IMG/VR virus record: IMGVR_UViG_2821013286_000001 | Span: 1-64,000 of that record | DNA from: a virus | Lineage: Duplodnaviria > Heunggongvirae > Uroviricota > Caudoviricetes | Length of the DNA stretch: 64,000 nucleotides | Strand: one strand, 5' to 3' | Shown here: positions 41,660 through 56,853 of the stretch, piece by piece | Position numbering within the stretch: the first letter of the stretch is position 1 | Layout: every line of letters starts with the position of its first letter | Notes under the pieces: model-generated | Seen by the model: the letters and a program-made list of their open reading frames with translations, nothing else | Told to the model about the DNA's origin: nothing | Databases searched by the model: none | Translations under genes and position numbers: made by a program

Positions 41660-41675
41660 TTCTAGATATCTAGAA
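41660..41675. repeat. perfect 16-bp palindrome TTCTAGATATCTAGAA
   Basis: Read directly from the non-coding hub; TTCTAG half-sites recur elsewhere in intergenic DNA. Confidence 0.55.
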
Positions 41676-41889: not shown

Positions 41890-42240
41890 CCTCGGAGAAT
41901 TCTCACCTCATAGAAAGACAGAAACCTAGAAAGATAGGCATATAGAGAGAAAGCCTCATAGAAACCTACAGAGACAGATCCATAGAAAGAGAACTACCTG
42001 CGGATATAGAATTCTAGAATTACAGAAAGAAAGGCTCATAGAGAGAAACAGCTAAGAGCATATGCGTAGGAGTGAGAACTGTAGAGAGGTGGCTACGTGA
42101 ATGAGAGAAGTGGCGAGAGAGTAGACGTATGAGTGGAGAGTAGGCTGTGAGAAATAGCGAGAGGTAGAGGGTAGGTGTAGATGAGTGGATAGCGTGAGAA
42201 GGGAGAGGTGGAGAGAAACGTAACGAAGGATGGTGGAGCG
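41890..42240 (+). repeat. purine-rich (GA-rich) low-complexity block on the + strand
   Basis: 42060-42240 is roughly 78% A+G with about 7% C; contains repeated CATAGAAA / TAGAGAG / GAGTGGAGAG words; no credible ORF. Confidence 0.6.
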
Positions 42241-42244
42241 GCGC

Positions 42245-42400
42245 CAGCCAGGCCCTCTTCCTGCCAACCGCCCCGCTCCCCTCCTTCCAGATCCGCAGCC
42301 TAATCCACTCTGGACCAGCCACCGGAACCGCCGCACCCATTCCCGCGAGCCTCTCATGTCCGCAGTTTCCTAGATTCCTGCATTCCTTTAATTCTAGGAA
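42245..42400 (+). repeat. pyrimidine-rich (C-rich) block immediately abutting the purine block
   Basis: ccagccaggccctcttcctgccaaccgccccgctcccctccttcc...; abrupt strand-composition switch at about 42240. Confidence 0.55.
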
Positions 42401-42443
42401 CCGCAACATTTGGAAGCCAAGTTCCGTACATTTATATAAATCT

Positions 42444-42510
42444 ACATTCCTAGATATATATTATATATACATCGCACGGCTTCCAAACACGTCGGGAATG
42501 TGTCCAACTC
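42444..42510 (+). repeat. 55-bp element copy A (alternating TA run + ACATCGCACGGC + AAACACG..AATGTGTC)
   Basis: atatatattatatatacatcgcacggcttccaaacacgtcgggaatgtgtccaactc; about 160 nt upstream of gene 42670. Confidence 0.55.
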
Positions 42511-42669
42511 CTTGAATCTCGCGGCTATCGATGGGTTTCGGTTCCGCATTGTTTGTCTTGCGGTCCGCATCGCCGCGCTTCTAGGAACAAGCTCACCTTT
42601 GCTAAAACGGTAGTCAGAAACAACGAAAGACCGCCACGAAGCGGTCACTCACAAAGCAAGGGTAATGAC

Positions 42670-43491
42670 ATGGCAAACATTTTCAATCTTACCGCCGCTG
42701 ACGCCCACGACCTCGACGCTCTGATTGCGGACGCGCTCATTCAGGAAGAAGCAGAGAAGGCGAAGCTCGATGCTTATGCCGACCAGGCCAAGGAGATCAT
42801 TCAGGCCGAGGCTGTTCGACAGGAGCAGCTGAACGTTCCGGTCATCGAGCGGATCTATATCGACGGCAATCTCAAAGTTACGGCTGACGCCATCGAGATA
42901 GAGCAGGTGGAAGCGTTCTGCGAGCGCATTCGAGCCGAGTTTGTGACACGTGCGGTTTACGAGAAGGAGAAGAATGAGGCGAACGACCGCATTCAGAAGA
43001 CCCTTCACGGCTGTGCAAGCATTCTTGCCTCGATCCGAGGTGCACGCGGTATGCTCGCCTGTGACGTTGATCCGAGCTTCATCAATCGCCATCACCGCGA
43101 TAATCAGCGCTTCAACGTCTACGCCATCGAGAAGGTGGGTAAATTCGTGCAGCAGATGGATTTTGGTGCGATCGGAAACGCCATCAACAATGCCGTGTTC
43201 AAGACCATGTGGAATTTCATGAACGCTGGCGACGAATTCACCATGGACGCAGCCAAGTGTGCAGCGAGTGCTGATATCCGTCTGAAGGACGAGCAGAAGC
43301 GCTGGCACAAGCACCTTGTGCGCCACACAGTCAAATCGACGGTGGCGAGCACGCAGTCATCCTCTACTCTCAACGCCATGGCAGTTCTGGGAATTGCCAA
43401 GCAGACCGGTATGAAGAACGGCGTTGAAGTTTGGCAGATGATCGACGGACCGCAGACACGTCGGATTGCGGATGTTTTGAAGCTGGTCTGA
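42670..43491 (+). CDS. hypothetical protein (first gene downstream of the non-coding hub)
   Basis: MANIFNLTAADAHDLD... (274 aa) starts at an in-frame ATG of track ORF 42553..43491. Confidence 0.5.
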   Translation: MANIFNLTAADAHDLDALIADALIQEEAEKAKLDAYADQAKEIIQAEAVRQEQLNVPVIERIYIDGNLKVTADAIEIEQVEAFCERIRAEFVTRAVYEKEKNEANDRIQKTLHGCASILASIRGARGMLACDVDPSFINRHHRDNQRFNVYAIEKVGKFVQQMDFGAIGNAINNAVFKTMWNFMNAGDEFTMDAAKCAASADIRLKDEQKRWHKHLVRHTVKSTVASTQSSSTLNAMAVLGIAKQTGMKNGVEVWQMIDGPQTRRIADVLKLV

Positions 43492-43707
43492 CGCCGCTAA
43501 GCGCCTACTCTACGGAATAGCCAGGTTCGCGCCTGGCTTTCTCCGTTTCCGGGAACGGCGGTTATTTCTCATAAGGCAAACAGGACCAGGAAGCGGCGCT
43601 GGCGGTCGTGAGAAATCCATAGGAAGAGCCATAGGCGCGTCCGGTGGCTCATTGAGCACAATTCCACCAGTTGGCAACACGGAACGCGTCAGCGCCTCAA
43701 TTTCAGC

Positions 43708-43750
43708 GTTTTAGGCGTATCTATCTTTCTATAAATCTATGTTCATAGAA
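43708..43750 (+). repeat. promoter-like cassette copy 1 (TTTTAGGCGTATCT..TTTCTATAAATCTA..TTCATAGAA)
   Basis: gttttaggcgtatctatctttctataaatctatgttcatagaa; 35 nt upstream of ATG 43785. Confidence 0.6.
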
Positions 43751-43784
43751 ATGCAGAACGCTAAATCGTTAGAAAGATAGAGAA

Positions 43785-44009
43785 ATGGCAGAACATACCT
43801 ACCTGCGAGCGCTTGAGACCAAGTTAGCGCGGTCTGTCGCCACTGACCTGGCCGATAAGCTCTGCGATCAGACGCATGAGGAGTTCCAGGAGCTGGTCGC
43901 CGCTAAGCGCCGCAGTCTGCCAAAGGTGGTTTGGGAAGACGTGATCGACTTCTTCGCCGATCTGACGACCAAGAGCCACATCCAAGCCGCTTATATGCTG
44001 GAGGCATGA
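43785..44009 (+). CDS. hypothetical small protein (cassette gene 1)
   Basis: Preceded 35 nt upstream by a repeated promoter-like cassette. Confidence 0.45.
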   Translation: MAEHTYLRALETKLARSVATDLADKLCDQTHEEFQELVAAKRRSLPKVVWEDVIDFFADLTTKSHIQAAYMLEA

Positions 44010-44293
44010 CCATGCTGACAAACGGAACAACTGATGGCGTGACGCTCGAAGAGGAAGAGCAGATCAGACGGCTGCTTCCGGAACGTCTCAAGCGCTTTGT
44101 GCTGGAATTCATCAATGAGCCTATTCCGTGGCGTTGGCTATGGAACGCTTACCTGACGCGCGGAGAAGATGACCTCATGAAGCTTTTGGAAGTCGCCAAC
44201 GTCAAAATGCATGCAAATGCGATGGGTGAGGACTTCTACCGGTACGTCAGCCCTTATCGAGACCTCGAAAGACCCGCAACATCGCGCTTTTAG
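44006..44293 (+). CDS. hypothetical protein
   Basis: ATGA overlap; 95 aa. Confidence 0.4.
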   Translation: MTMLTNGTTDGVTLEEEEQIRRLLPERLKRFVLEFINEPIPWRWLWNAYLTRGEDDLMKLLEVANVKMHANAMGEDFYRYVSPYRDLERPATSRF

Positions 44294-44329
44294 GCGTAAC
44301 TGCATTTCTATAAATCTAGCTTCATAGAA
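44287..44329 (+). repeat. promoter-like cassette copy 2
   Basis: cttttaggcgtaactgcatttctataaatctagcttcatagaa; 20 nt upstream of ATG 44349; about 85% identical to copy 1. Confidence 0.6.
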
Positions 44330-44348
44330 CGCTAGAAAGGTAAATACT

Positions 44349-44633
44349 ATGTCCATGAGCTATTCCGCTACCCTGAACAGCTACGATCCAGCGTCCAATT
44401 CGATGACGGTAGATGTTCGTCGCTTAGAAGAGCCGAACGAGACGTTTCTGGTCGAAGCCTATATCGACTCGCGTATCTTCGGAATTCGCGATACCACCGA
44501 CCACACAGGTGATGCGGAAGACGATTATGCAGCCGAGGTTCTCTATCATTTCCTCAAGGCGCATAAACATGCTGTAGCCGCCCACCGACCTACCGTCATA
44601 GATGGCGTATTTCTGTTTTCCATAAACGTCTGA
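44349..44633 (+). CDS. hypothetical small protein (cassette gene 2)
   Basis: Preceded by cassette copy 2; followed by an intrinsic terminator. Confidence 0.45.
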   Translation: MSMSYSATLNSYDPASNSMTVDVRRLEEPNETFLVEAYIDSRIFGIRDTTDHTGDAEDDYAAEVLYHFLKAHKHAVAAHRPTVIDGVFLFSINV

Positions 44634-44637
44634 TCTA

Positions 44638-44662
44638 AAGCGCCCATGTGGCGCTTTTTCTT
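44638..44662 (+). terminator. rho-independent terminator
   Basis: AGCGCC-catgtg-GCGCT followed by TTTTTCTTT; after cassette gene 2. Confidence 0.6.
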
Positions 44663-44788
44663 TACCAGGCTATGCGGACCAGGCCGAGGCTGTGGCGGCT
44701 GATCCCGTTCCCTGTCCCAACGCCGAGCAGCTCACCAGGTTTCACCCATCTGAACCCGCTACAAATGTTTCTAGATCCGCAACGTTCT

Positions 44789-44835
44789 GTTTTTAGGCTT
44801 ATCTAGCTTTCTATAAAACTAGATTCATAGAGAGC
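44789..44835 (+). repeat. promoter-like cassette copy 3
   Basis: gtttttaggcttatctagctttctataaaactagattcatagaga; 41 nt upstream of ATG 44876. Confidence 0.6.
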
Positions 44836-44875
44836 AACAAATGAATAGCTCTAGAAAAACAGAAGGATAGGTAAC

Positions 44876-45250
44876 ATGAACAACGCCACTCAGATCGCAG
44901 ACAAGATTGCCAATGAACTCGTTCACGTCTCCGAAATGATGAATGCCGTTGCGACTGCCGATATCACCAATCTCACACGTCAACCTGTCTCCAAGCGCGA
45001 GACCTCGCCGGTCCGCAAGCTTCAGATCCTCAAAGAAATGCAGCAGGAAGTGTATGCGCGTAACAAAGCAGCCGTCGAGAAGGTTCTGACAAGCCGCACC
45101 TCGTTCGGTGATGACTTCCCTGACATGGTGCAAGACCGCTTCAAGGACATCGATCGCTCGCGTCGTGCAGAGCGTATGTTCCACGCAAAGCGCAAGCGTG
45201 AGCGTGCCGAGCTGATCGCCGCTGCAAAGCTCGCACGTGAGGAGCGATAA
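44876..45250 (+). CDS. hypothetical protein with basic C-terminus (cassette gene 3)
   Basis: Preceded by cassette copy 3; C-terminal FHAKRKRERAELIAAAKLAREER. Confidence 0.45.
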   Translation: MNNATQIADKIANELVHVSEMMNAVATADITNLTRQPVSKRETSPVRKLQILKEMQQEVYARNKAAVEKVLTSRTSFGDDFPDMVQDRFKDIDRSRRAERMFHAKRKRERAELIAAAKLAREER

Positions 45251-45419
45251 GAGAGTAGGCGCTTAGGCGCCTTTCCACCGCGGTAACATTGGACCTGGAA
45301 CTGGACGTGGCCGACGTACACAGAGCCGAACCTGGTGAGCTGTGCGTGAAACCCGCTAGAACCCTTCAATTCTTCATATCTAGGATTCTACAGCTCTAGG
45401 AATGGGATTGGCTAGAAAT

Positions 45420-45620
45420 ATAGGTCGCGGCTTAGGAAACCGGCATCCGTACGGGATCGACGGGCTGGCGCTTCGGCTGCGGGGCTGGCTGTCGTCTCAC
45501 AGGCGCGCGGGATCGACGGATAGGAACCAGGCCAGTGGCTTTTCCGTACAGGCCGTCCACCGGATGATCCTATGGATTTGCCCAGACAGCGAGAAGGACC
45601 GCTCATCACGAGCAGCCCTC
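45420..45620. other. GC-rich anomalous island with internal direct repeats (GGGATCGACGG x2, GGGCTGGC x2)
   Basis: Local GC clearly above the rest of the window; repeats at 45453/45509 and 45462/45482; no convincing ORF. Confidence 0.4.
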
Positions 45621-45625
45621 ACCCT

Positions 45626-45814
45626 TTAAACCAGACCCAACCGGTTCAGCTCCCGCAGACTTTCGAATTTCACACCTGTCTGATTACGGTATGGTCGGCC
45701 AAACATTTGGTCGATCCGCTGAAAGCTGCGTTTGTCAGATTCAATCAGCTTGTCCGTGAGTGACTTTTTCTTTTTGGACTGCTTGTACCAGAGCTTCGGA
45801 GAGACATCGCTCAT
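45626..45814 (-). CDS. hypothetical small basic protein
   Basis: 62-aa minus-strand ORF with GGAGAG SD; abuts a GC-rich island. Confidence 0.3.
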   Translation of the reverse strand: MSDVSPKLWYKQSKKKKSLTDKLIESDKRSFQRIDQMFGRPYRNQTGVKFESLRELNRLGLV

Positions 45815-45815
45815 A

Positions 45816-46013
45816 TCAGCTCTCCGACGTGCATGCGAAAGTGGTCGAGACGCGAATGCCGTTCTGATCGACCGGTACAGCGCTTTGACGCGCTGCGGAC
45901 TGTGCAGAGACGCAATCCTCGTAGGTCAGACCATAATCAACCACATAGTCATGCGTTGATACGTCTTGCGGCGTTTGCGTCATGACGATTGCGAGCAGAA
46001 TGAAGGTTTTCAT
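45816..46013 (-). CDS. small secreted protein
   Basis: N-terminal signal-like MKTFILLAIVMTQTPQ; minus strand, immediately upstream of 45626..45814. Confidence 0.3.
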   Translation of the reverse strand: MKTFILLAIVMTQTPQDVSTHDYVVDYGLTYEDCVSAQSAARQSAVPVDQNGIRVSTTFACTSES

Positions 46014-46378
46014 ATGTGTTACCTATTTATCTGTTTTTGTATGATTATAGATACCTAGATTTCTATATTCCTTCAAAGCGAACGTTGCGGCATTGCTAGA
46101 TGTCGAGAAGGGGAGAATTGCAGAAAACTAGGAAGGTAGAAGCCTAGGAAGCAAGAATTCCATGTCCGCAGCCTTGCAGGAATCTAGAAGGACAGGATTG
46201 CAGGCGACCAGGAGCCGAGCCACCGGATAATCCAGTAGGGGAGGCGGCACGAAATAGGATCGGCGGAAAATGGCGTTCGGCTCACAGGGGAATGGAGAGC
46301 ATTGCCCATAAGGAAAGGGGAGCGGGACGCGGCGCTGGACCGCTGATTATCGGACTGCTGATAGTGCGCTTGCAACAT

Positions 46379-46428
46379 ATGTTTCACAACAATGTTTCAC
46401 GCAAAGGTCAAAAAGCGTCAAATTTGAC
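46379..46428. repeat. direct repeat ATGTTTCAC x2 and 12-bp palindrome GTCAAATTTGAC
   Basis: atgtttcacaacaatgtttcac ... gcgtcaaatttgacc, 3' of the low-GC minus-strand gene. Confidence 0.45.
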
Positions 46429-46508
46429 CGCTGACACGCGTTTTGATTTTTGCGCAAAATGATACGCGCGCTATTGCTAACGCGCGTCTGTGACTCGATT
46501 TGAGCGAA

Positions 46509-46534
46509 CCGCGCTAGATATTTCACTAGCGCGG
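46509..46534. repeat. inverted repeat CCGCGCTAG-atatttca-CTAGCGCGG
   Basis: 9-bp arms 11 nt past the stop of gene 46545..47177(-); no U-tract. Confidence 0.4.
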
Positions 46535-46544
46535 TAGGTTACGA

Positions 46545-47177
46545 TTAGAGCTTTGCAAGTACCGCTTTCAGCATAGCGTTTTCGGTATTGATCTTATGCG
46601 TTTTGAAACGACCGCTAAACGTTGCACGCTCTTCAGCGCTCAAAAGGTTCAAAATGTTGAGACCTTCAAGAACAACGCTATTGCTCGACGATTGCGTGTC
46701 GCACGTTGCAGCGTCGCAATTCGTCTTACCACGCTTGATTGCATACATACCGCTTTCGCTCTTGTCAGTAATGTAGTCATGCGAGAACGACTTGCGACTA
46801 TCAAGTGAGGTGAAAATTTCACGCTCATTCACGATGAAAAGCTTGATAGTCTTCATTGCAGGTTCAAGAAATGCGTCAAGCGTTGCTTTACCGCTTTCAT
46901 CGATAAGAAACTTCAACATGCTTTGCAGCTTCTTGAGCGCATACATATTTTGCGTGAAAACACCGACATTGCATTGAACGCTATCAAGCAATTCTTCAAC
47001 CTGCTTTACACCGAGCAAAAGAGAAATGTTGTGAAGCATTTTCAGGTTCGGTGCGCTGATAGTACCTTTCTTCACTTCTGCGTCGATACGCGTTGCGAGC
47101 GCAAGCACATACTTGTTTTGAGCTGGTGCATTGTTCGTTGCGTTCTGCTTCTTTGCTACATTCTTAGTCATTGTCAT
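46545..47177 (-). CDS. hypothetical protein in a lower-GC segment
   Basis: 210-aa minus-strand ORF; GC visibly lower (about 44%) than surrounding genes; palindromic element at its 5' side (47186-47212). Confidence 0.5.
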   Translation of the reverse strand: MTMTKNVAKKQNATNNAPAQNKYVLALATRIDAEVKKGTISAPNLKMLHNISLLLGVKQVEELLDSVQCNVGVFTQNMYALKKLQSMLKFLIDESGKATLDAFLEPAMKTIKLFIVNEREIFTSLDSRKSFSHDYITDKSESGMYAIKRGKTNCDAATCDTQSSSNSVVLEGLNILNLLSAEERATFSGRFKTHKINTENAMLKAVLAKL

Positions 47178-47185
47178 TACCTCAT

Positions 47186-47212
47186 GTTGTGTGAACGTTT
47201 ATACATATTTGT
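47186..47212. promoter_or_regulatory. palindromic intergenic element (upstream of minus-strand gene)
   Basis: gtgtgAACGTTTATACAtatttg, 9 nt from the start of gene 46545..47177(-). Confidence 0.45.
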
Positions 47213-47467
47213 TTTTGTGCATCGTTGCGAGACTTGCTTGCTCGCTTTCGATGATTTGAATTTATCAGCTTTCACGTTTTATGCAACGCGGGATGCACCG
47301 AAGTCTTAGAGATATCAACAGGTTAGCTAGGGGATGCCTTCATTGTGCGCCACGATTTTTGAACCGTTCCTCCGGTCCGCTGCACCTTCTAAAATCCCCA
47401 CAATCCCTTATTCGCTATCCTCCGGTTCCTATACCCAACCGCCAACAGACAGGCGTTCGTTCCTCCG

Positions 47468-47497
47468 GTTTGTAAATAAACGTTGATTTATATTTCT
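47468..47497. promoter_or_regulatory. palindromic intergenic element
   Basis: tttgTAAATAAACGTTGATTTATAtttc before gene 47552. Confidence 0.5.
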
Positions 47498-47551
47498 GCG
47501 GTGCATATGTTCGGATCATTGATTTGCTAATCCTTTTCCGAAAGACCCTTT

Positions 47552-47782
47552 ATGTCTCAATCCGTTTCAAGCACGTCTGACGAACGCACCGTCAACAACA
47601 CCATGCGCCATGCCTACCGTGTTCTCTCCGATGAGGAGAAGGCGAACATGGGCAAGGTTAAGGATATGGGCCTCGAATTCCATAGTCTTGTCGATGGCCT
47701 TGGCGCCAGCCGCGAACTCTCCATCGCAAAAACCAAAATCGAAGAAGCCGTCATGTGGGCAGTCAAGCATCTGACTGCCTAA
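47552..47782 (+). CDS. hypothetical protein
   Basis: First gene of a + operon after the palindromic element at 47468. Confidence 0.45.
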   Translation: MSQSVSSTSDERTVNNTMRHAYRVLSDEEKANMGKVKDMGLEFHSLVDGLGASRELSIAKTKIEEAVMWAVKHLTA

Positions 47783-47806
47783 TTTCGTTTCAAGGACACT
47801 TTTCCA

Positions 47807-48082
47807 ATGAGCAAGATGAAACTTACCCCAACTCTGCTTTCAGGCATTCACCCCATTTATGGCGACGTGACCTGCGCCAGCTTTGACGGCACCGAAGAAA
47901 GCGCCATGTGCTGCGCATCGCTCGATCCGAACATCATCGCGTATGAGAGCGCCGAGCTTGGCCGCTGGAGCATTGAGGTGCCGACCATTGCAGGCGAATT
48001 CGCCTCTCTTGAGCCAGGTGATTACGTTGGCCTGACAGACAACGATCGCGTTGTGCCAATTCTGGCTGCCGAGGTCGAGTAA
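47807..48082 (+). CDS. hypothetical protein
   Basis: 91 aa. Confidence 0.4.
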   Translation: MSKMKLTPTLLSGIHPIYGDVTCASFDGTEESAMCCASLDPNIIAYESAELGRWSIEVPTIAGEFASLEPGDYVGLTDNDRVVPILAAEVE

Positions 48083-48372
48083 TGGCCAATCTCTACCGTA
48101 CCAAGGGTGAGAGGGTTAAGGCGCAGATCGTAGATTTCAACGCGATCAGCGCCATAATCGCTTTTCTGCAGGAGCGGAAAGTCGCCTTCGAACTTAAAGT
48201 CGTCAGCGAGAATGGTGAGCGTCCTCGCGTTTATGTGTCGTTCGTTTCTCCGCTACCAGAAGGCAGCGTTACGCTGCACGCCAATCCTGCCGACATGATA
48301 GTTCTCAAGGACGATCGGCTATCTGTCTGGAAGCAGGACGTGTTCTACAGGGAATACGAGGTAATCCGATGA
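48082..48372 (+). CDS. hypothetical protein
   Basis: TAATG overlap; 96 aa. Confidence 0.4.
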   Translation: MANLYRTKGERVKAQIVDFNAISAIIAFLQERKVAFELKVVSENGERPRVYVSFVSPLPEGSVTLHANPADMIVLKDDRLSVWKQDVFYREYEVIR

Positions 48373-48872
48373 GTGTGATTGCCTATCGTGACGGCGTGAT
48401 GTGCGCCGATACTCGTGCCTGGAGCGGCTCTCATCGACCAATCGGCGCTAAGCGCAAGATTCATGCATTGGAAGATGGAACGCTCGTTGGCGTCGTTTCC
48501 ACGATCGTCGGCTTTGGTGAGCGCCTGGCTGAGTGGGGGAGGGGAGGCTTCAAGGAAGAAGAGTTTCCAGATCCTGAATGCGAGATCGATTTCGCAATGC
48601 TCGTCGTGAAGCCGGATGGATCTGTTCTCTACTACGACAATTGCCGCTTTCCAACCGGACCACTCGAAGCCCCTTACTTCGCGTTTGGCAGTGGCGGTTC
48701 ATACGCCTTGGGAGCCATGCATGCCGGAGCGTCTGCCGAAGATGCCATTCATGCGGCCATCAAATTCGATACAGTCTGCGATTACCCCCTTCAGAAGATC
48801 GAGCGCGCTGTCGATGGACCGGTTCACTCTTCCGTCTATCACCACGTAAGGGGGTCCTATTATGTGCGGTGA
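48369..48872 (+). CDS. HslV/proteasome-beta-like Ntn-hydrolase peptidase
   Basis: Aligns along its length to HslV by eye: N-terminal S1 nucleophile position (MSVIAYRDG ~ TTIVSVRRNG), conserved Lys (GAKRKIHAL ~ GNVKKVRRL), VGFGERLAEW ~ AGFAGGTADAF, FGSGGSYALGAMHA ~ IGSGGPYAQAAARA. Confidence 0.5.
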   Translation: MSVIAYRDGVMCADTRAWSGSHRPIGAKRKIHALEDGTLVGVVSTIVGFGERLAEWGRGGFKEEEFPDPECEIDFAMLVVKPDGSVLYYDNCRFPTGPLEAPYFAFGSGGSYALGAMHAGASAEDAIHAAIKFDTVCDYPLQKIERAVDGPVHSSVYHHVRGSYYVR

Positions 48873-49056
48873 TATCGTGCACGTGTCGCTGAAGCGCCGG
48901 ATCGTCAAATACGCTGACGGCTCAACCGTTCGCATCGAGAGCCTTCTGGATATTTACGGCTTTGACGCTCGCACCAGTCGCGAAGTAGTGTCCTTCGTGA
49001 CTGAAGAGGGTGAAAGCTTCCACCTTTCTGAAGTGGAGGACTGCCTTGTTGGATGA
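48862..49056 (+). CDS. hypothetical small protein
   Basis: Overlaps end of HslV-like gene; 64 aa. Confidence 0.35.
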   Translation: MCGDIVHVSLKRRIVKYADGSTVRIESLLDIYGFDARTSREVVSFVTEEGESFHLSEVEDCLVG

Positions 49057-49069
49057 AGCGACGAAATTC

Positions 49070-49201
49070 ATGATCCGAATGATCATCCTGTTTCTCTTCG
49101 CAGCCTTCACGCTCTGGGTAATTCAGTATCAGCCGCCAACACGCGAAAAAGATCCCGTCGTCACCCAAAAAGAGCTTGAATATAAAGGTGAATCTGTATA
49201 A
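49070..49201 (+). CDS. small membrane protein
   Basis: MIRMIILFLFAAFTLWVIQY... single TM helix. Confidence 0.3.
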   Translation: MIRMIILFLFAAFTLWVIQYQPPTREKDPVVTQKELEYKGESV

Positions 49202-49219
49202 ACATTTATTTACATTTTC
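49192..49219. promoter_or_regulatory. palindromic intergenic element
   Basis: ctgTATAAACATTTATTTACAtttt at the end of the + operon. Confidence 0.45.
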
Positions 49220-49243
49220 AGCACGAAAGAATTTTCAGTCAAA

Positions 49244-49277
49244 AGGGCGGTTGTCATGTATGTGACCCGCCCTTTTT
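49244..49277. terminator. bidirectional terminator between convergent + operon and ParG-like gene
   Basis: AAAAGGGCGG...CCGCCCTTTTT (A-tract / hairpin / T-tract). Confidence 0.55.
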
Positions 49278-49282
49278 CGTTG

Positions 49283-49546
49283 TCAGCCCTTGGAATTTTC
49301 CTTGTACCAAAGGTCCACTGCCTCATAGATCACCTGGGTCAATGTCTTATCGACCGCGACAGCTGCGCCCTTCAGCTTACGATGCCACTCACGATCCACG
49401 ATCACATTGAGCTGTGAGGTGGTTTTGGCGCGCATGTTATCCGCTGGCTTGATGTTGGTATCAAGCGACGTGGCAAAATACGAGCGCTGTGCGGTGCGCG
49501 GTGCCTTCTTTGGCGTGTAGTCTTCTTCATCGTCTGCCATCTTCAC
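49283..49546 (-). CDS. ParG-like ribbon-helix-helix partition protein
   Basis: 87 aa, basic N-terminus, C-terminal RHH-like segment LNVIVDREWHRKLKGAAVAVDKTLTQVIYEAV; 4-nt overlap with the upstream ParA gene. Confidence 0.45.
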   Translation of the reverse strand: MKMADDEEDYTPKKAPRTAQRSYFATSLDTNIKPADNMRAKTTSQLNVIVDREWHRKLKGAAVAVDKTLTQVIYEAVDLWYKENSKG

Positions 49547-50184
49547 ACTCCTGTCCGCTCATCAACCAGTTTATAAATTTCTGTCAGAAGACGCTTGGCG
49601 TCACGCTTGAGCGTGGCAACCTTGACTTCCTGCACCGCTAGTCCTGTCGAGTTCGCAAACGCGTAGGTCGGTCGGAACTTGATCTCGGTCTTGGCGATCT
49701 TGAAACCGCCGCCGCTAATCAATTCGCGCGTCTCCTTGACGGCAATCGCGCTATCGACGGATTTGCTGATGACGAACAGGATATCATCTTTTTTGGCACC
49801 TTTATCGACCAGCTCCAGCGCGAACGCGAGCTGCGGCTCCACATCGTCTGCGATCGGCGCGGTCGGAATAAGGATCAGACGAGAGGCGAGGGCGATATCG
49901 AGCGAGGTATCGTGACTGTCTGGCTTGCCATCGGCCACAACCAGATCGACGCGCTCTTTGCTAAGCATGGACGGCTTGGCATAAGGCTTTGCATCAATCG
50001 CAGGCTCGTATTGGGCCGCCTTGCGTTTCTCATTCCATTTGAAGGAGGTTAGCTGTGTGGTGTTGAAGTCGGCAATCTTCACAGACCAATCATTGCTCGC
50101 ATAGCCAACCGCAATCATGCGCGACAATGTGGATTTTCCGACGCCGCCCTTCTGGCTGAGACAGGAAATAATGACCGGTTCCAT
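49543..50184 (-). CDS. parA: ParA/ParF-type partition ATPase (small type Ib)
   Basis: Deviant Walker A SQKGGVGKST; 213 aa; followed by a small RHH gene. Confidence 0.75.
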   Translation of the reverse strand: MEPVIISCLSQKGGVGKSTLSRMIAVGYASNDWSVKIADFNTTQLTSFKWNEKRKAAQYEPAIDAKPYAKPSMLSKERVDLVVADGKPDSHDTSLDIALASRLILIPTAPIADDVEPQLAFALELVDKGAKKDDILFVISKSVDSAIAVKETRELISGGGFKIAKTEIKFRPTYAFANSTGLAVQEVKVATLKRDAKRLLTEIYKLVDERTGV

Positions 50185-50223
50185 AGGAATCCTCGTGGCA
50201 AATCAATGTTTGATTTACCTTAT

Positions 50224-50259
50224 AATCTAGGTTCCTAACAACCTATTAAACCTAGAATT
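50224..50259. promoter_or_regulatory. imperfect inverted repeat AATCTAGGTT-N15-AACCTAGAATT in the parA upstream region
   Basis: Candidate operator or centromere-like site for the ParG-like protein; flanked by direct repeats TGATTTACCT at 50211 and 50341. Confidence 0.4.
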
Positions 50260-50274
50260 ATATAAATCTATGAA

Positions 50275-50300
50275 AATATAAATAAATGTTTACACAACCT
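50275..50300. promoter_or_regulatory. palindromic intergenic element (ParA upstream region)
   Basis: aatataaaTAAATGTTTACAcaacc, about 90 nt upstream of parA on the minus strand. Confidence 0.5.
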
Positions 50301-50322
50301 TAACTTTTAGGTATAGACAAAC

Positions 50323-50343
50323 TCATGACGTTCCACGTCATGA
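50323..50343. promoter_or_regulatory. inverted repeat TCATGACG-ttcca-CGTCATGA in the parA upstream region
   Basis: Arms of 8 bp, 5-nt spacer. Confidence 0.4.
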
Positions 50344-50379
50344 TTTACCTTGTGTCATTTTCTTGTTTTGTTCAGGAAA

Positions 50380-50414
50380 CCCCTGCTCTTTCATAGAGCA
50401 GGGGTCTTTTTTTT
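50380..50414. terminator. GC hairpin + T8 tract at the 3' end of the helicase gene region
   Basis: ACCCCTGCTCT-ttcat-AGAGCAGGGGT TTTTTTTT; the T-tract is on the + strand although the neighbouring gene is on the minus strand. Confidence 0.45.
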
Positions 50415-51990
50415 AGGCTGCTTTCTTGAACTCCTGAAAGATTTCCCAAGGCAGCTGTTCGACAATACCTTCTGCAAAGCCAGGCGTGCTGCGCACGATA
50501 TTCTCACGCTGGCGCGCATGATCGCGGAGCACGTCCGGAGCGTTGGACGAGTAGTCGATGAAAAATGCAAAGTTCGGCATGCCTTTCTTGGCGCGCAATC
50601 CACGACCGATCTGTTGCCGAAGTTGTACTTCCGCCTTCATACCGCCCAGGCGCTGCACAAGACCAATAGCTGGAACATCTACACCTACGTCCAGAATAGT
50701 CGTGCCGATAACGCCATCCAGTTCACCATCTTTCAACTTACGCAGCGTCTCGCGACGTTCACCCATCTTGTCTTCGCCCTGCAAAAACGCAAACTTCAGA
50801 CCGGCAGCCTTGTATTTCTCCAGAATGACCTGTCCGTGGCGCTTGCGAGCAATCAGTGCCAATACCGGCAGGGAGTAGCTTCTGGCTAACAGGGCATCTT
50901 CCAGTGCCTGTTCATGCATATTGGTGTTGTCGATATAGCCAAGCGTGTAGGCGCGCTCATATGGCGTCGATTTATAGAGCTTCACTGCTGCTGGAACGTC
51001 TCGGAACAGGAAGTATGGCTTTGCCAGAATGCCGCGATTAATTAACTCCTCTTCGGAAATGTCGATGAGAATGCGTCCGAACGCCGCCATGAGGCGCATA
51101 TTGTCTTCGGCAGACGAGCGCATGAACGGTGTGGCGGTCAGTGCGACGCGGATCTGAGCATTTTTGCAATACTGCAGGATCTTGAAGTAGCTTTCGCCGC
51201 CTGCTTCGTGCGCTTCCTCACCAATTACGACCTCGACCAGAGACAGAAACTTCTCAATGGCCATCTTCCGGCGCTTTTTGCGGTCATAATTATCCTGCGC
51301 GAGCTTATCGATCTCTTCATTGGGCATATTCGGATTCTTGCCCTTGCTGAGATTGATTGATTGAATGATGGCTCGACGTTCTGCGCGAAAATCCGGCTCT
51401 TCCAGTGATTGAACAAGAGTTTGAACCATGCCGAGGTTCACACCCTTGACGAAACTCATTTCTCCGTCGCCGATCTGACCGGTGCTCATGCCTATATCTT
51501 CGAGCTGGCTCTTCATCTGGTAGAGTAGGATGCCGCGCGTCGTGATAAAAAGCGTGATCCGCTTGAAGCGAGCGGCAATCAGTTTGGCGATCTTTGACTT
51601 ACCGCCGCCAGTCGCCACACGAATGATGCCGTTCTGATGCTTCTCGACCTGACGAAGCGCCTTCAACTGGTAATCGTATTTTGGATCATCATTGCCGAAC
51701 TCGTCTACAATCGGAGATTCCGGACCAAGCGGTAGCATTGGCGGTTTCTTGATGTGATGCACATTGAAGCCAGCACGCGTCAGTTCCTCACGCACGACCT
51801 CTGCGAAGCCTGCCGGAAAGGTATGATTGGAGACATTGTAGAAGCTCGACTTGCCATCCCAGGAAAGAGATCCGAAGCCAGTATTCGAGTGCTCATAGGA
51901 CAGAAGGTTATTTACGAGGTTCACAACCTGCTTGGTTGGGTCGATCAGCTTCGCGATGACGGCGTTCGACGCCAGTTTGACAGTAATCAT
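50413..51990 (-). CDS. SF2 DEAH-box helicase
   Basis: Motif I GGGKSKIA, motif II VIGEEAHEAGG (DEAH-type), motif III TATPFM, motif VI QQIGRGLR. Confidence 0.7.
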   Translation of the reverse strand: MITVKLASNAVIAKLIDPTKQVVNLVNNLLSYEHSNTGFGSLSWDGKSSFYNVSNHTFPAGFAEVVREELTRAGFNVHHIKKPPMLPLGPESPIVDEFGNDDPKYDYQLKALRQVEKHQNGIIRVATGGGKSKIAKLIAARFKRITLFITTRGILLYQMKSQLEDIGMSTGQIGDGEMSFVKGVNLGMVQTLVQSLEEPDFRAERRAIIQSINLSKGKNPNMPNEEIDKLAQDNYDRKKRRKMAIEKFLSLVEVVIGEEAHEAGGESYFKILQYCKNAQIRVALTATPFMRSSAEDNMRLMAAFGRILIDISEEELINRGILAKPYFLFRDVPAAVKLYKSTPYERAYTLGYIDNTNMHEQALEDALLARSYSLPVLALIARKRHGQVILEKYKAAGLKFAFLQGEDKMGERRETLRKLKDGELDGVIGTTILDVGVDVPAIGLVQRLGGMKAEVQLRQQIGRGLRAKKGMPNFAFFIDYSSNAPDVLRDHARQRENIVRSTPGFAEGIVEQLPWEIFQEFKKAA

Positions 51991-52026
51991 GGTTTCCTAC
52001 GGCTTGCAAAAGCGGTTGTTTGGCCT

Positions 52027-52054
52027 ATTATGTGGATAAATATTTATACAAATC
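52027..52054. promoter_or_regulatory. palindromic intergenic element (divergent helicase / ParB-like region)
   Basis: atgtggaTAAATATTTATACAaatc. Confidence 0.5.
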
Positions 52055-52072
52055 TATTTTGAGTACGTCCAC

Positions 52073-52831
52073 ATGATAAACCCCGAATATCTAACGGTTT
52101 CGGCATCGACACTTCGCAAGAACCCCTGGAACACGAACATCGTGTCTGCGGACAATGAAGCGAAGATACGAGAGTCGATCACGCGAAACGGTCTTTTCAA
52201 ACCGATCATAGTCAGAGAGGTAGCGGGTATTGCCGGCTACGAGATCATCGGCGGTGAGCACCGTTGGGAACAGGCGATTGAGCTTGGACATACAGACGTT
52301 CCGATCGTCAATCTCGGCCAGATCGATGACCGTCATGCCAAAGAGATCGGCATCATCGACAATGCGCGGTACGGCGCTGACGATACGGTTGGCCTCGGCG
52401 ATATTCTGAAGGAACTTGGCAATCTCGATGAGATCCAGTCATTCCTTCCCTACGGCGACACTGATCTGAAGCTGCTTTTTACGGCAGGCGAGATCGATCT
52501 CGATGCACTCGGCGATGAGGCTACCGATGCTGAGACAGCCGAAGCTGAAGGCGTTGAGGAAGAAGTTGCCGCGAAGCCGGTCAAAACCCACACGGTTGTG
52601 CGCTTCAAAATCTCCCTTTCAGATGCAGAACGCGTAACCGCACTTGTTGCCAAGACACAGAAAACGCACGGCTACACGACGGAAGATGAGCTGACCAATG
52701 CCGGTGACGCTCTAATCCACATTCTCTCGCAGTTTTTCCCGCAAGCCGCATCCAAGAGCGAAAGCGACGACGATTTCGGCTCGGAAATGAACATTCTCGA
52801 TGAACTTGATTACGCCCTGGAGGCAAAATGA
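52073..52831 (+). CDS. ParB-like nuclease-domain protein 1
   Basis: ParB N-terminal domain pattern KPIIVREVAG...YEIIGGEHRWEQAIELG...VPIVNL; acidic C-terminus. Confidence 0.6.
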   Translation: MINPEYLTVSASTLRKNPWNTNIVSADNEAKIRESITRNGLFKPIIVREVAGIAGYEIIGGEHRWEQAIELGHTDVPIVNLGQIDDRHAKEIGIIDNARYGADDTVGLGDILKELGNLDEIQSFLPYGDTDLKLLFTAGEIDLDALGDEATDAETAEAEGVEEEVAAKPVKTHTVVRFKISLSDAERVTALVAKTQKTHGYTTEDELTNAGDALIHILSQFFPQAASKSESDDDFGSEMNILDELDYALEAK

Positions 52832-53496
52832 TTCATACCGTAGAACTTTGGGACGTTGAAAAGCTCGTTCCTTACGAACTCAACGCCAAAAAGCATCCTG
52901 ATTTCCAGATCGAGAAGCTTGCACGCTCGATCAAGAAGTTCGGCTTTTCCAGCCCGATTGTCGTCTGGGGCAATGGCGAGATCATCGCCGGCCACGGTCG
53001 CCGCCTGGCTTCAATCAAACTTGGACTGACGAAGGTTCCGGTTGTCGTGCGCGCGGATCTCTCGAAGGCCGAAGCTGACGCGATGCGGCTTGCTGACAAC
53101 CGCGTGGCCTCGACTGAATATGATCAGGAAATGGTGCAGGAAGAGCTGCGCCGTCTCAATGAGCTGATCATGACCGAAGACATCGATCTGGACCTGTCAC
53201 TGACTGGCTATGACGAAAAGGAACTCAATTTCACGCTGGCCGATATGGGCGAAATGAGCTTCGACCACTTCGTTGATGACGTTGGCGCTGCTCTCGAAGA
53301 GCAGAAACAGGAAACGGCCAAGGTTATTGCCGACACCGACGACACGGCAGCGCCTGTGGTGGATGCCCTCGGCTTCAAACGCCTTCCCATTGCACAGTCG
53401 CGCCAGCTGCGCGAGTTCATGCGGCAGATTGAAACCCAGACCGGCCTGAAAGGTGCTGACGCTCTCATGCAGTTCCTCACGGCTTCTTTGGCCTAA
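52828..53496 (+). CDS. ParB-like nuclease-domain protein 2
   Basis: SPIVVWGNGEIIAGHGRRLASIKLGL.KVPVVV; ATGA overlap with paralogue 1. Confidence 0.6.
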   Translation: MIHTVELWDVEKLVPYELNAKKHPDFQIEKLARSIKKFGFSSPIVVWGNGEIIAGHGRRLASIKLGLTKVPVVVRADLSKAEADAMRLADNRVASTEYDQEMVQEELRRLNELIMTEDIDLDLSLTGYDEKELNFTLADMGEMSFDHFVDDVGAALEEQKQETAKVIADTDDTAAPVVDALGFKRLPIAQSRQLREFMRQIETQTGLKGADALMQFLTASLA

Positions 53497-53530
53497 TTTT
53501 CTAGATTTATATAAAAATAGGATTGTTGCC

Positions 53531-53953
53531 ATGAATAGCGACGAGAACACGGAGAGCAACGTAATCGACATGCGTAAATTTCGGGAAACCGGAAAGCGCG
53601 TGTCGCTCGACGCTATTCAGGAAACCAAGACCGAGAAAAAGGAAGTCGCGCTTGATGAAGTGAAAGGCCGGATAGCCGAGTATCTCGCCAACCTGACTAA
53701 GCTGGCAGAGCAGGGGAGGCTGGAAAGTATCGTCATTGTTGCCAGCTCCACTGACGGTCCCTTTCACATGAACACGATCATCGATCCACGATGCTCGAAC
53801 ATGACGCAGGCTTACACCATGGCTGGCGCGCTCGATTCAGCACGTCTGCAAATGCTCGATATGAGCGCATGGGCACCTGAGCTTCTCGAAGATGGCAGCA
53901 CATTTGAGCAGGACGATTTTAGCACCGAATTTATTGAGGAAGATGATGAGTGA
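53531..53953 (+). CDS. hypothetical protein
   Basis: ATG 53531 within track ORF 53453..53953. Confidence 0.4.
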   Translation: MNSDENTESNVIDMRKFRETGKRVSLDAIQETKTEKKEVALDEVKGRIAEYLANLTKLAEQGRLESIVIVASSTDGPFHMNTIIDPRCSNMTQAYTMAGALDSARLQMLDMSAWAPELLEDGSTFEQDDFSTEFIEEDDE

Positions 53954-54611
53954 GTACGTAATTGATCGTGCTTTCACGACATCCGTGGACCGCACACCGC
54001 GCGTTCTGGAAGTCGCTGAAGCATTTGGCCTGGGTCTGTCGGACAAGAAATTCGTGATTTACGACAATCTGGCGCTAGAAGTTTCGCCAGGCGATGTCGT
54101 TTATATCACTGGACAGTCAGGCTCCGGCAAATCACTCCTGCTGCGCGACCTGTCACAGAAAATGCGCGAAAGCGGTCTGAAGGTAGCGGATCTCAACGAG
54201 GTCGAGCTTCCGGATGTTCCGGTCATCGAATCTCTGGGAGAAAGCACTCTCGAAGCGACGGAATTGCTGGCGAAGGCCGGCATTTCGGACGCCTACATTT
54301 ATATTCGCAAACCAGGCGAGCTGTCGGACGGCCAAAGATACCGCCTGAAGCTGGCAAAAGTCATGGAACAGGACGCGGATGTGTGGATTGCCGACGAATT
54401 CGGCGCCATCCTGGACCGCGTGACCGCCAAGGCTGTTGCATTCAACATGGCAAAAGTTGCGCGCCGCCTCGGCAAGATCTTCATGGTCGCCACGACGCAC
54501 ACGGATCTTGTGTCCGAGCTGGCGCCGAACCTTTTCATCGACAAGCGTTTCCGTGAGAAAGTGAATATCGAGCGCACGGACATTGTGGAGGCTCTCAATG
54601 TCGCTGCTTGA
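53950..54611 (+). CDS. P-loop ATPase
   Basis: Walker A GQSGSGKS, Walker B VWIADEFGAILD; ATGA overlap. Confidence 0.55.
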
Positions 54612-54855
54612 CAAAATGGCTCTGTTTTTTGCCGAAGCAAACTATTTTCTGATGATTGCAACAAAGGGCTACCAGCTTGAAGGCATTTTTATCGTCGCTG
54701 CGATCCTGATTGTCGCGCTGGCCTTGATTGTCGGCCTTGTCTGGCTTGTTTTTGACGTGTTCTGGTCGCTGTTCAAGCATATCAGCGCGAAGCTGTTCAA
54801 AAACAGGTCAGAAACCGACACAGAAGCTCAGGGGAGCGATCCGAATGCATCCTGA
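54598..54855 (+). CDS. small membrane protein
   Basis: Two TM helices (IFIVAAILIVALALIVGLVWLVF). Confidence 0.35.
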   Translation: MSLLDKMALFFAEANYFLMIATKGYQLEGIFIVAAILIVALALIVGLVWLVFDVFWSLFKHISAKLFKNRSETDTEAQGSDPNAS

Positions 54856-55717
54856 GTACGAGACGATCTTAAAATACGAACGCTCGCCAGTGCAGCGTTT
54901 TGAGCTTTTGGATGAAATGATGGTGGAGCCTGGCTCCGTCGAAGATTGGGATCTTCTGCACGACCTTCACTACAAGGCCGAGAAGCTGCCTATTGGTCCG
55001 CATTTCTTCAAGCTCACGCTGCGCGGCGATACAATTGGCGTCCTCGTAACTGGCGTTGCAAAGGGCATGGTGCGTGAGCGCAACATGGTCTTTCCGAACC
55101 TGAAGCCAGGCGCAGGCGAGACCAAGCTGACCAACACGAACCGTTACCACTACATCAACCGGAATTTCCGCGTTGTGTCGCGCTTTGTCGTGGACACGAT
55201 GTACCGCGGTATCGGCTGCGGCTACCGGATGATGAATCTGGTCTCGCGTATGGAAGGCATGCAGTTCATCGAAATCCAGTCGTCTATGTCGAAGTTCAAT
55301 TACTTCGGCCAGAAGGCAGGCTTCCATTTCGTCAAGCCAATGAACGCCAACAATCACGAGAAGGTCATGCGCTTCTTCCGCAAGAACTTCAAATCCAACC
55401 CGCAGGATTTCGAGGCTCTTGTGCAGGAGGCTGAAGCTATGTCCGCCGAGCACCAGGAAGAGCTTCTTGTCGTTCTGAAGGAATTCTACGGCGGCAGCTC
55501 TGCATTGGAGAACACGACGCGCGGCGGCGTGCAGGCCGAAGGTCGTATTGCGCGCATGACGATCCGCGATTGCATCAAGGGCATTCAGCAGATTGGTCTG
55601 GCTTCACCGATGTACGGCATCTGGCGCAATCCGGATTTCAAGCGCGACATTCCGAAGATCCTGCCGCTGTCGGCATTCGACAATCAAAAGCCCACCGAAA
55701 AACTGGTGCTGCCATGA
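54845..55717 (+). CDS. GNAT-like acetyltransferase-fold protein
   Basis: RFVVDTMYRGIGCGYRMMN resembles GNAT motif A (V...YRG.GIG..L). Confidence 0.4.
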   Translation: MHPEYETILKYERSPVQRFELLDEMMVEPGSVEDWDLLHDLHYKAEKLPIGPHFFKLTLRGDTIGVLVTGVAKGMVRERNMVFPNLKPGAGETKLTNTNRYHYINRNFRVVSRFVVDTMYRGIGCGYRMMNLVSRMEGMQFIEIQSSMSKFNYFGQKAGFHFVKPMNANNHEKVMRFFRKNFKSNPQDFEALVQEAEAMSAEHQEELLVVLKEFYGGSSALENTTRGGVQAEGRIARMTIRDCIKGIQQIGLASPMYGIWRNPDFKRDIPKILPLSAFDNQKPTEKLVLP

Positions 55718-55968
55718 GAATTCCGGTCCAGCGATCCAAGAAGCAGAAAGAGATCATGAGCTACATCCTGAAAGGGATGGATGCCGGCACACCGGAGACA
55801 TACGAGTCTCTGGCCGCCAAGCTGTCATATGGTCCAAGCTACGATGCGCTCCGCGTCTCAATCGCTTTCCTGAAGAAGCACAGCATGGTTGAGGTCCGCA
55901 GGGTAGGTCACGTTGCGGAACTGCTTCCGACCTCCGAGAGCTACTACTATTTCCGCAAGCTGACGTGA
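55717..55968 (+). CDS. small putative DNA-binding protein
   Basis: 83 aa, basic N-terminus, helix-rich; immediately upstream of the terminase small-subunit candidate. Confidence 0.35.
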   Translation, partial: RIPVQRSKKQKEIMSYILKGMDAGTPETYESLAAKLSYGPSYDALRVSIAFLKKHSMVEVRRVGHVAELLPTSESYYYFRKLT

Positions 55969-56060
55969 AAGCGTCCCGCAGAGTTTCAGATTTTAGGATC
56001 AGGACGCAGCGTTTCAAAAATCCGCGCGATGTAAATTAAGATAAATATATAAGAGTTAGT

Positions 56061-56118
56061 ATTATATTATATATATACATCGCACGGCATTGAAACACGG
56101 CTAAAATGTGTCGAGACG
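56061..56118 (+). repeat. 55-bp element copy B
   Basis: attatattatatatatacatcgcacggcattgaaacacggctaaaatgtgtcgagacg; about 80 nt upstream of the terminase small-subunit gene; about 80% identical to copy A. Confidence 0.55.
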
Positions 56119-56163
56119 TAACCATAGGTTGCGGAATTGACATCTGTTCCTGAAATCATCATA

Positions 56164-56187
56164 CTGTATAAATATTTATACAATTTT
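56164..56187. promoter_or_regulatory. palindromic intergenic element (contains TATAAATA)
   Basis: ctgTATAAATATTTATACAatttt, 13 nt before the terminase small-subunit ATG. Confidence 0.5.
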
Positions 56188-56199
56188 TGAGCCGTTTTT

Positions 56200-56850: not shown

Positions 56851-56853
56851 TCC

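Follow-up and report, generated by a model that had tools for sequence, protein, structure and literature searches.

What does a short non-coding element do when it stands, within one tailed-phage genome, both ahead of an accessory gene and ahead of the packaging genes? The question is raised by the first 64,000 nucleotides of the IMG/VR virus record IMGVR_UViG_2821013286_000001 (Caudoviricetes), hereafter the window, which belongs to an SSU5-like phage-plasmid of ~108 kb from Alphaproteobacteria. A preliminary description had found in it an element duplicated upstream of gene 42670 (copy A) and upstream of terS, the gene of the terminase small subunit (copy B), and both positions proved correct and kept across the family of relatives. 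We show here that the duplicated stretch belongs to a larger element with inverted arms, that relatives carry it at the heads of three gene blocks, and that its arms diverge between lineages and match within each genome. We also weigh the functions that could explain this pattern, among which a protein-binding control region is tentatively preferred.

Sequence and extent of the element

The duplication is genuine and non-random. BLAST extension of the 18-mer noted earlier gave an exact 19-mer, TATATATACATCGCACGGC, present in each copy and at no other site in the window (Table 1), and a window scan allowing up to 3 mismatches placed the exact 18-mer, ATATATACATCGCACGGC, at 42463-42480 and 56071-56088 only, with a chance expectation of 0.04 matches from shuffled sequence. 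The repeat finder (family D13) aligned the two copies with 82% identity over 50 nt (42455-42504 and 56063-56112). Neither motif nor repeat scans found a third copy, and the earlier statement that the element occurs only twice therefore holds for the window; it does not hold for the genomes of phages X66 and RHEph10, which have three copies when scanned whole.

The duplicated stretch of 55 bp is the right half of an element of ~90 bp, in which GC-rich inverted arms enclose an AT-rich core of 36-59 nt in the window copies. Folds of the whole element beat those of shuffled sequences (z = -6.35 for copy A and -3.33 for copy B). Attention had previously been drawn to another feature of the right half, a conserved arm in which AAACACG and AATGTGTC, 9 nt apart, would form a stem of 4-5 bp. 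Both blocks are indeed present in both copies (AAACACG at 42485-42491 and 56093-56099, AATGTGTC at 42497-42504 and 56105-56112), but the gap between them is 5 nt, and 9 nt is the loop of the ACAC/GTGT stem. This small stem-loop did not stand up as a feature: its z-scores are +0.63 (copy A) and +0.51 (copy B), 148 and 144 of 200 shuffles fold equally well or better, and the nearest relative lacks its left half in copy A and its right half in copy B. Copy B is not fused to a palindromic element either, the palindrome TGTATAAATATTTATACA (56165-56182) lying ~50 nt downstream and belonging to a separate multi-copy repeat class.

Comparison of close strains showed no change in the copy A core of a strain with a 92% identical gene-42670 protein, and a single TA unit as the only difference in copy B of a second strain. 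The (TA)n/TTATA run of the core (42455-42469 and 56063-56072) shifts in length by 2 nt between strains that are near-identical across the element, and behaves like a microsatellite inside it. The exact 18-mer had no match in IMG/VR, and 16-mer scans of GTDB genomes and of JGI metagenomes returned 38 and 97 single matches in unrelated taxa, attributable to chance, the window's phage being absent from both collections.

Conservation across relatives and a third copy

Eleven relatives were compared: X66, B1VFA, RHEph10, N1_10, Y2_11, pLM21S1, Pararhizobium p5, Methylobacterium pAMS5a, two metagenomic relatives and a Shinella element. An equivalent element stands upstream of terS in all of them (11/11), at 27-228 nt from this gene in the 12 genomes when the window is included, and a matching copy ~14 kb away, upstream of the gene-42670 homolog, is clear in 10 of the 11 and weaker in Shinella. 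Clear inverted arms of 8-23 bp are found in 16 of the 22 elements analysed, copies A, B and C (see below) taken together, the other 6 showing no inverted repeat at the threshold used. The spacers between the arms measure 32-59 nt and are 67-90% AT, except for the weak Shinella copy A candidate, in genomes of 52-60% GC. In the group of X66 and pLM21S1, only copy B is a full palindrome, while copies A and C keep a single arm.

Copy C is a third site revealed by whole-genome scans, which gave three loci in X66 (3511, 18750 and 49155) and three in RHEph10 (96037, 110602 and 23829). It lies directly after the lysis cassette and before the block of gp029, PhoH, DnaB and primase genes, and it was found in every relative inspected at this position, namely the five genomes X66, RHEph10, pLM21S1, p5 (with perfect 19-bp arms) and pAMS5a; the premise of two copies fails in these relatives. 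All copies point in the direction of the genes they precede, including those of pAMS5a, whose record is inverted. The elements head three co-directional blocks: an accessory/early block starting with gene 42670, a packaging-morphogenesis-lysis block starting with terS, and a replication block. Two of these positions are inside the window and the third lies outside it, known from relatives; should a copy with TATATACATCGCACGG-like arms be found after the lysis genes of the window's own genome, the three-copy rule would extend to it. Although the arms of different lineages are too divergent to align, the three positions stay the same, and a miniature inverted-repeat mobile element was rejected on this ground.

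Arm sequences are unlike between lineages and match between the copies of one genome. The arms read ATTCCCGTCC/GGACGGGAAT in the X66 group, TCCGGTCCGTCTCCCTTC in the RHEph10 group, CTCCAAGTCCGCGTTCCTGTAAA in pAMS5a and GACGCCTAACGACC in the nearest metagenomic relative. Even close pairs follow this rule: CATCG occurs in both window copies against GGTCG in both copies of the nearest relative, and both RHEph10 copies have CCGGTCCGTC against CCGGAGCCGTC in both copies of N1_10, which read GGAGCCG in place of the GGTCCG of RHEph10. The copies within a genome have only 14-20 nt in common and are 14-45 kb apart; in lineages other than that of the window, they share nothing downstream of the arm. No such element was found in a Klebsiella SSU5-like plasmid that has homologs of terS, terL, the small upstream gene and the ParB genes.

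Two further observations concern the surroundings of copy A. A motif (A/G)ATTGTGTCC or AATGTGTCC follows it in the window (42497-42505), in the nearest relative and in the group of RHEph10, N1_10, Y2_11 and p5, though not in the X66 group, and the invariant winged helix in the product of the adjacent gene 42670 possibly binds there. Three independent Logan contigs end 0-450 bp upstream of the copy A right arm, one of them inside the element, a sign perhaps of poor coverage where the DNA is AT-rich or repetitive, perhaps of a genuine DNA end close by.

Possible control by an arm-binding protein

Judging from sequence comparison, we tentatively favour the view that the element is a lineage-specific protein-binding control region placed at the head of the three co-directional blocks. 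The arms match between copies within a genome, which argues for one trans-acting, sequence-specific factor co-evolving with its sites, and such a shared factor is preferred over gene conversion because the matching copies have so few nucleotides in common at such distances. Immunity and incompatibility determinants, such as lambdoid operators and plasmid iterons or centromeres, show the same pattern of fast divergence between otherwise syntenic genomes. Control of transcription entry is suggested by the block-head positions, the common orientation and the presence of TATA-like hexamers near the right arm: read by eye, such a hexamer lies 0-18 nt before the right arm in most copies and is TATAAT in all three X66 copies, and copy B of the window includes a sigma-70 match, TTAAGA-18-TATTAT (9/12, 56036-56065). 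The likeness of the copy A core to a motif of the 85-nt repeats at 43.7-44.8 kb, described below, speaks for the same view. In the scheme we propose, one phage-encoded DNA-binding protein would recognise the arms and co-control the three block heads, most likely by repressing or gating transcription entry in the plasmid-prophage state; its specificity would be immunity-like and diverge between lineages, and the AT-rich core (~35-60 bp, with TATA-like -10 motifs) would act as a promoter and/or as a bendable or meltable spacer. Among the roles first proposed (late promoter, pac site or second origin), a regulated promoter or control region thus stays the best reading, while a packaging-specific role and a late-only promoter are disfavoured because the third copy follows the lysis cassette and precedes the PhoH/DnaB/primase block. 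The third copy also weakens the idea of a second origin.

As to the protein, the TerS N-terminal region is read as a helix-turn-helix, and the product of the 84-aa gene just upstream of copy B is read, from its conserved sequence pattern, as a winged helix. Both vary by lineage and both are candidate arm binders. The gene-42670 protein was dropped as arm binder: between lineages with unrelated arms, its putative recognition helix hardly differs.

A number of points weigh against control by an arm-binding protein. Copy A has no sigma-70 match at the threshold used for copy B, matches in both copy regions are no more numerous than in shuffles, and -10-like hexamers easily arise in any AT-rich DNA. 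Copy B is not needed as the terS promoter because a separate promoter-like unit sits between the two (Table 1). The arm spacers of 32-59 nt are not in helical phase and the (TA)n length varies between near-identical strains, so that a single rigid dimer spanning both arms fits poorly. Compensatory changes keep the element's own arms complementary in copy C of p5 and of pAMS5a: in p5, CTCTCTTC pairs with GAAGAGAG in copy C, copies A and B having CTCCCTTC and GAAGGGAG. These changes point towards a hairpin or cruciform and, together with the variable off-phase spacing, favour a melted or hairpin structure. Whole-genome scans of X66 and RHEph10 found no arm motif near the XRE-type regulator beside repC, and the classic picture of an autoregulated repressor is therefore not borne out. 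Lastly, differences between arms are not matched by changes in the winged helix of the gene-42670 protein, and a timing signal shared by the late (terS) and replication blocks is not expected.

Known regulatory sites resemble the element in part. Like lambda OL/OR and the dispersed C1 operators of P1, it occurs in few to many copies at the heads of lytic units, with fast divergence of specificity in a stable gene order. These operators differ in being compact (14-20 bp) and usually repeated beside the repressor gene, whereas the arms of the element measure 8-23 bp, are set 32-59 nt apart by an AT-rich core, and are absent from the vicinity of the XRE-type regulator. The T5 promoter classes, with their blocks outside -35 and -10, share with it AT-rich upstream DNA, a conserved block just downstream of the -10 and the small size of the class, but the T5 blocks lack inverted-repeat symmetry and need only host RNA polymerase for their recognition. 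A limited literature search found no description of the element, and we cannot place this three-copy, lineage-specific palindrome at block heads, with its long AT-rich spacer, in any of the known kinds that it resembles, of which it would be a variant.

Conserved block-head sites that co-evolve with a trans factor would provide a handle on the switch between plasmid carriage and lytic growth, and should the arms turn out to determine immunity or incompatibility, these phage-plasmids could be sorted into compatibility groups from sequence. The subject extends beyond the genomes compared here: the DnaB-like helicase has 895 homologs at E <= 1e-60, many of them on contigs of 103-121 kb from Rhizobium, Ensifer/Sinorhizobium, Agrobacterium, Shinella, Mesorhizobium, Phaeobacter and other hosts. 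Relatives of the window phage-plasmid are thus common, and the family is little studied.

Alternative explanations

A role in replication is unlikely, if less so than the explanations that come after it. The elements would be origin-like unwinding elements whose core melts under supercoiling and whose arms bind an initiator or form hairpins that hold the bubble, the family's own DnaB-like helicase and primase starting lytic replication at up to three sites. The inverted arms around a 67-90% AT spacer in 52-60% GC genomes agree with this, as do the 1.3-kb hub of iteron-like repeats that adjoins copy A, the presence in the family of a DnaB-like helicase, a primase, a Pol III alpha subunit and a single-strand-binding protein (SSB), and the variable spacer length and compensatory arm changes, which suit a melt-and-hairpin structure. 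The plasmid replicon RepC is located elsewhere (PMC4447125), which leaves room for a separate lytic origin. Similar layouts, with inverted GC-rich sites flanking an easily melted core, exist in herpes simplex virus (HSV) oriS, in lambda ori (an AT-rich region plus a palindrome) and in the T4 origins that combine a promoter and an unwinding element, and copy A resembles them further by its iteron-like neighbours. Copies B and C, in contrast, have no adjacent iterons, no initiator was found whose specificity tracks the arms, and three origins exactly at block heads, all in gene direction, would be unusual. The windowed cumulative GC skew makes no clear turn at either window copy, a weak test in a genome whose genes are mostly one-directional.

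A bolder proposal, to which we give a low probability, makes the elements a new sort of structure-forming boundary site. A lineage-specific protein would recognise a melted AT-rich bubble that sequence-specific hairpin arms keep open, and the three sites would split the genome into separately controlled accessory, virion and replication domains, for instance by serving as loading sites of a machine for silencing, priming or bridging.

Equally improbable is that the copies are dispersed centromeres or loading sites of the ParB/KorB kind, on whose arms a partition-type or ParB-N-domain protein would segregate the plasmid prophage and/or silence the flanked blocks. Among the precedents, RK2 has 12 KorB operators, and pSM19035 has three parS sites that overlap promoters; P1 parS has protein boxes on either side of a bent centre, and Ravin, Rech and Lane reportedly described in 2008 dispersed N15 centromeres near late genes. 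The element shares with these systems a plasmid or phage-plasmid host, dispersal near promoters, two arms around a central bend and an incompatibility-like divergence, into which the lineage-specific arms fit. Moreover, the RHEph10-group cores, and these only, contain TATCTAATAGTTA, a 12/13 match to the consensus WATCAANNNNTTR of integration host factor (IHF), and the family consists of plasmid prophages with a type Ib ParA/ParG pair and two ParB-N-domain genes, all encoded between copies A and B (PMC12509600, PMC4447125). Against this, no copy adjoins parA/parG, directly upstream of which lies a separate AT-rich palindromic region (50244-50307); the ParB-like proteins match the N-terminal domain only, below the family cut-off, and their genes also occur in the Klebsiella plasmid that has no element; and known parS sites are compact palindromes or arrays of short repeats, not arms separated by 32-59 nt.

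The hypothesis of packaging signals has still poorer prospects. Copy B would be the recognition site of the terminase, pac or cosB-like, and the other copies secondary sites or the ends of a long direct terminal repeat. In lambda R3-I1-R2, inverted boxes surround a bendable AT-rich centre, and the layout of the element, two inverted boxes around an AT-rich centre, mimics it; copy B immediately precedes terS in the way that lambda cosB precedes Nu1, and SPP1 pac offers the same likeness. Copy B is also the most perfect palindrome in several lineages, the putative recognition helix in the HTH-like N-terminus of TerS is lineage-variable, and the 84-aa gene, read as a winged helix, abuts copy B. 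Unlike cosB and SPP1 pac, the element occurs three times per genome, and two of these sites are far from the packaging genes. The third copy comes after the lysis genes, good palindromes are found at copy A in pAMS5a and at copy C in p5, the Klebsiella plasmid has homologous terS, terL and small upstream gene without the element, and several equally good terminase sites would cut the genome into unpackageable pieces. A single pac or cos site fits poorly with three comparable copies per genome, although the location beside terS is as expected of one. In B1VFA, PhageTerm indicated fixed ends and a 3.6-kb terminal repeat, unrelated to the spacing of copies A and B, which are 14.2 kb apart (PMC12509600). 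The boundary of a long (14 kb) direct terminal repeat was rejected as well, X66 and RHEph10 having three copies and the B1VFA repeat of 3,605 bp being far from the A-B distance of 14,249 bp (PMC12509600).

The published terminal repeats measure 3,605 bp in B1VFA and 3,939 bp in V1VFA-S (PMC12509600), and a single interval, within the 30 kb compared, measures 3,605 bp in the former and 3,940 bp in the latter with homologous ends. In B1VFA its ends lie within 39631-39808 and 43236-43413 of the record (7632-7809 and 11237-11414 of the stretch compared); it starts in the non-coding hub, 275-450 bp upstream of copy A, and finishes in an intergenic gap. No shared motif was found at these two candidate ends. 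No link was found between position 1 of the B1VFA record and the published repeat: the region is poorly conserved in V1VFA-S, and position 3605 falls inside a gene. If the interval that starts in the hub is the true terminal repeat, copy A heads the first gene at the left end of the virion DNA.

A hairpin acting in RNA or single-stranded DNA at block junctions is just as doubtful as packaging. In read-through transcripts the arms would pair as a long stem around an A/U-rich loop, and this structure would be an RNase III site or an mRNA-stabilising end. The whole-element folds beat shuffles by the z-scores given above, a loop is free to vary in length, compensatory changes occur inside single copies, and the copies lie exactly between co-directional blocks. 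Conversely, 6 of 22 elements have no inverted repeat at the threshold used, with a single arm left in copies A and C of X66 and pLM21S1, a signal of structure only leaves the arm match within genomes unexplained, and template switching that corrects quasipalindromes can yield compensatory changes without selection. The stems are not followed by a T-run and Rfam has no match. An intrinsic terminator was rejected: terminator scans list nothing at either copy, and the loops are 32-59 nt long with no T-run. A described RNA family was rejected too, Rfam 15 giving no match at the element and two weak ones (E = 0.66) elsewhere in 41000-57000.

Finally, a nut/put-like antitermination leader, with a promoter followed by a conserved box and a small hairpin once per early operon, agrees with the two window copies, each before a long operon with the 19-mer and then AAACACG-N5-AATGTGTC, but is largely refuted and very improbable: the small hairpin is no better than shuffles, lacks one half per copy in the nearest relative and carries substitutions in the strain with the 92% identical gene-42670 protein, and copies of other lineages have nothing in common 3' of the arm.

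Genome context

The window matches the Logan contig SRR10127684_59 (107,825 bp). Its portal protein is 54-56% identical to those of the Rhizobium phages RHEph10, X66, B1VFA and V1VFA-S and 45-47% identical to those of Pseudomonas nickie-like phages and of enterobacterial phage-plasmids (Klebsiella, Escherichia). A terS search also matched circular plasmids of 115-119 kb from Sinorhizobium, Rhizobium, Shinella, Pararhizobium and Methylobacterium, and a near-identity search of 41-47 kb against GenBank phages gave no match, relatives being found only at the protein level. B1VFA, V1VFA-S and pLM21S1 have been described as phage-plasmid-like elements that carry a RepC replicon together with parA and parB (PMC12509600, PMC4447125).

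Table 1. Features of the window around copies A and B
Feature	Coordinates	Strand	Details
Copy A, whole element	42409..42504	+	left arm 42409-42418 (TTTGGAAGCC), pairing with right arm 42478-42487 (GGCTTCCAAA); AT-rich core ~42426-42469; 19-mer 42462-42480; tail AAACACG-N5-AATGTGTC 42485-42504
Copy B, whole element	56022..56112	+	left arm 56022-56036 (CCGCGCGATGTAAAT), pairing with right arm 56073-56087 (ATATACATCGCACGG); AT-rich core 56037-56072; 19-mer 56070-56088; conserved tail 56093-56112
Non-coding hub	41086..42408		upstream of copy A; 1.3 kb, purine-rich, TAGAAA/TAGAGA-type repeats at multiples of 8 nt (D1)
Gene 42670	42670..43491	+	first gene after copy A; 273 aa; helical body and C-terminal winged-helix domain
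Type Ib ParA/ParG partition pair	49283-50184	-	between copies A and B
Two ParB-N-domain genes	52073-53496		between copies A and B; match N-terminal domain only, below family cut-off
84-aa gene	55714..55968	+	ends ~50 nt before copy B left arm; phrog_900
Sigma-70-like promoter match	56137-56165	+	TTGACA-17-CATACT; abuts palindrome TGTATAAATATTTATACA(A) 56165-56183; separate unit 56137..56183 between copy B and terS
terS	56200..56850	+	first gene after copy B; followed by terL 56854-58125 and portal 58193-59806

The hub that precedes copy A has an AT skew of +0.20 and a GC skew of -0.15 and looks like iterons or a T5-style non-coding repeat region; an equivalent hub is found before copy A in X66, Shinella and a metagenomic relative. 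Homologs of gene 42670 were found only in this alphaproteobacterial clade. In RHEph10, gp103 (96170-97060 of the record, 2171-3061 of the stretch compared) is annotated as this homolog and aligns with no family member; the annotation looks like a wrong-frame call, and tblastn places the homolog at 96342-96950. The stop codon of the 84-aa gene abuts or overlaps the left arm of copy B in X66 and RHEph10. Searches of Rfam, Pfam, PHROGs and NCBIfam assigned no function to gene 42670, to the 84-aa gene or to the element.

Between copies A and B, the window also encodes a UvsW-like helicase and ABC-type ATPases, in addition to the partition and ParB-N-domain genes. A 76-aa gene in this interval (47552-47782) has a Pfam match to Acb2/Tad1-hairpin, the family of anti-CBASS/Thoeris sponges, and one relative has a larger version.

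Other repeats in the window

The palindrome TGTATAAATATTTATACA at 56165, ~50 nt beyond copy B, belongs to a multi-copy repeat class (families D2/D3), TGTATAAAYRTTTATACA often with TATAAATA, spread over 820-61930 of the window, for example at 1223, 7004, 14738, 16040, 20945, 26656, 30911, 30989, 38417, 49192, 50275, 52033, 56165, 58135, 60875 and 61910. Those copies that were compared with the list of open reading frames (ORFs) lie ~17-45 nt upstream of start codons, and relatives have their own versions at like places: AGTAAGTAATTACTTACT in X66, B1VFA and pLM21S1, GTCAATCAATATTGATTGAC in the RHEph10 group and AAAACAATTTGTTTT in the Klebsiella SSU5-like plasmid. These palindromes are perhaps promoters or operators for a factor of the phage, for which the family's own sigma factor is a candidate. 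A sigma-70-family factor is encoded outside the window, beside CobT/CobS and Pol III alpha, in X66 (40303-40947), RHEph10 (39826-40461) and p5 (25178-25813; coordinates of the stretches compared).

Three direct repeats of 85 nt (TTTTAGGC...TTTCTATAAATCTA...TTCATAGAA; 43682-43766, 44261-44345 and 44764-44848) precede several small plus-strand ORFs and are probably a class of early promoters. The copy A core (42432-42457) resembles the TATAAATCTA motif of these repeats (D4/D6), which is also found at a site at 50258.

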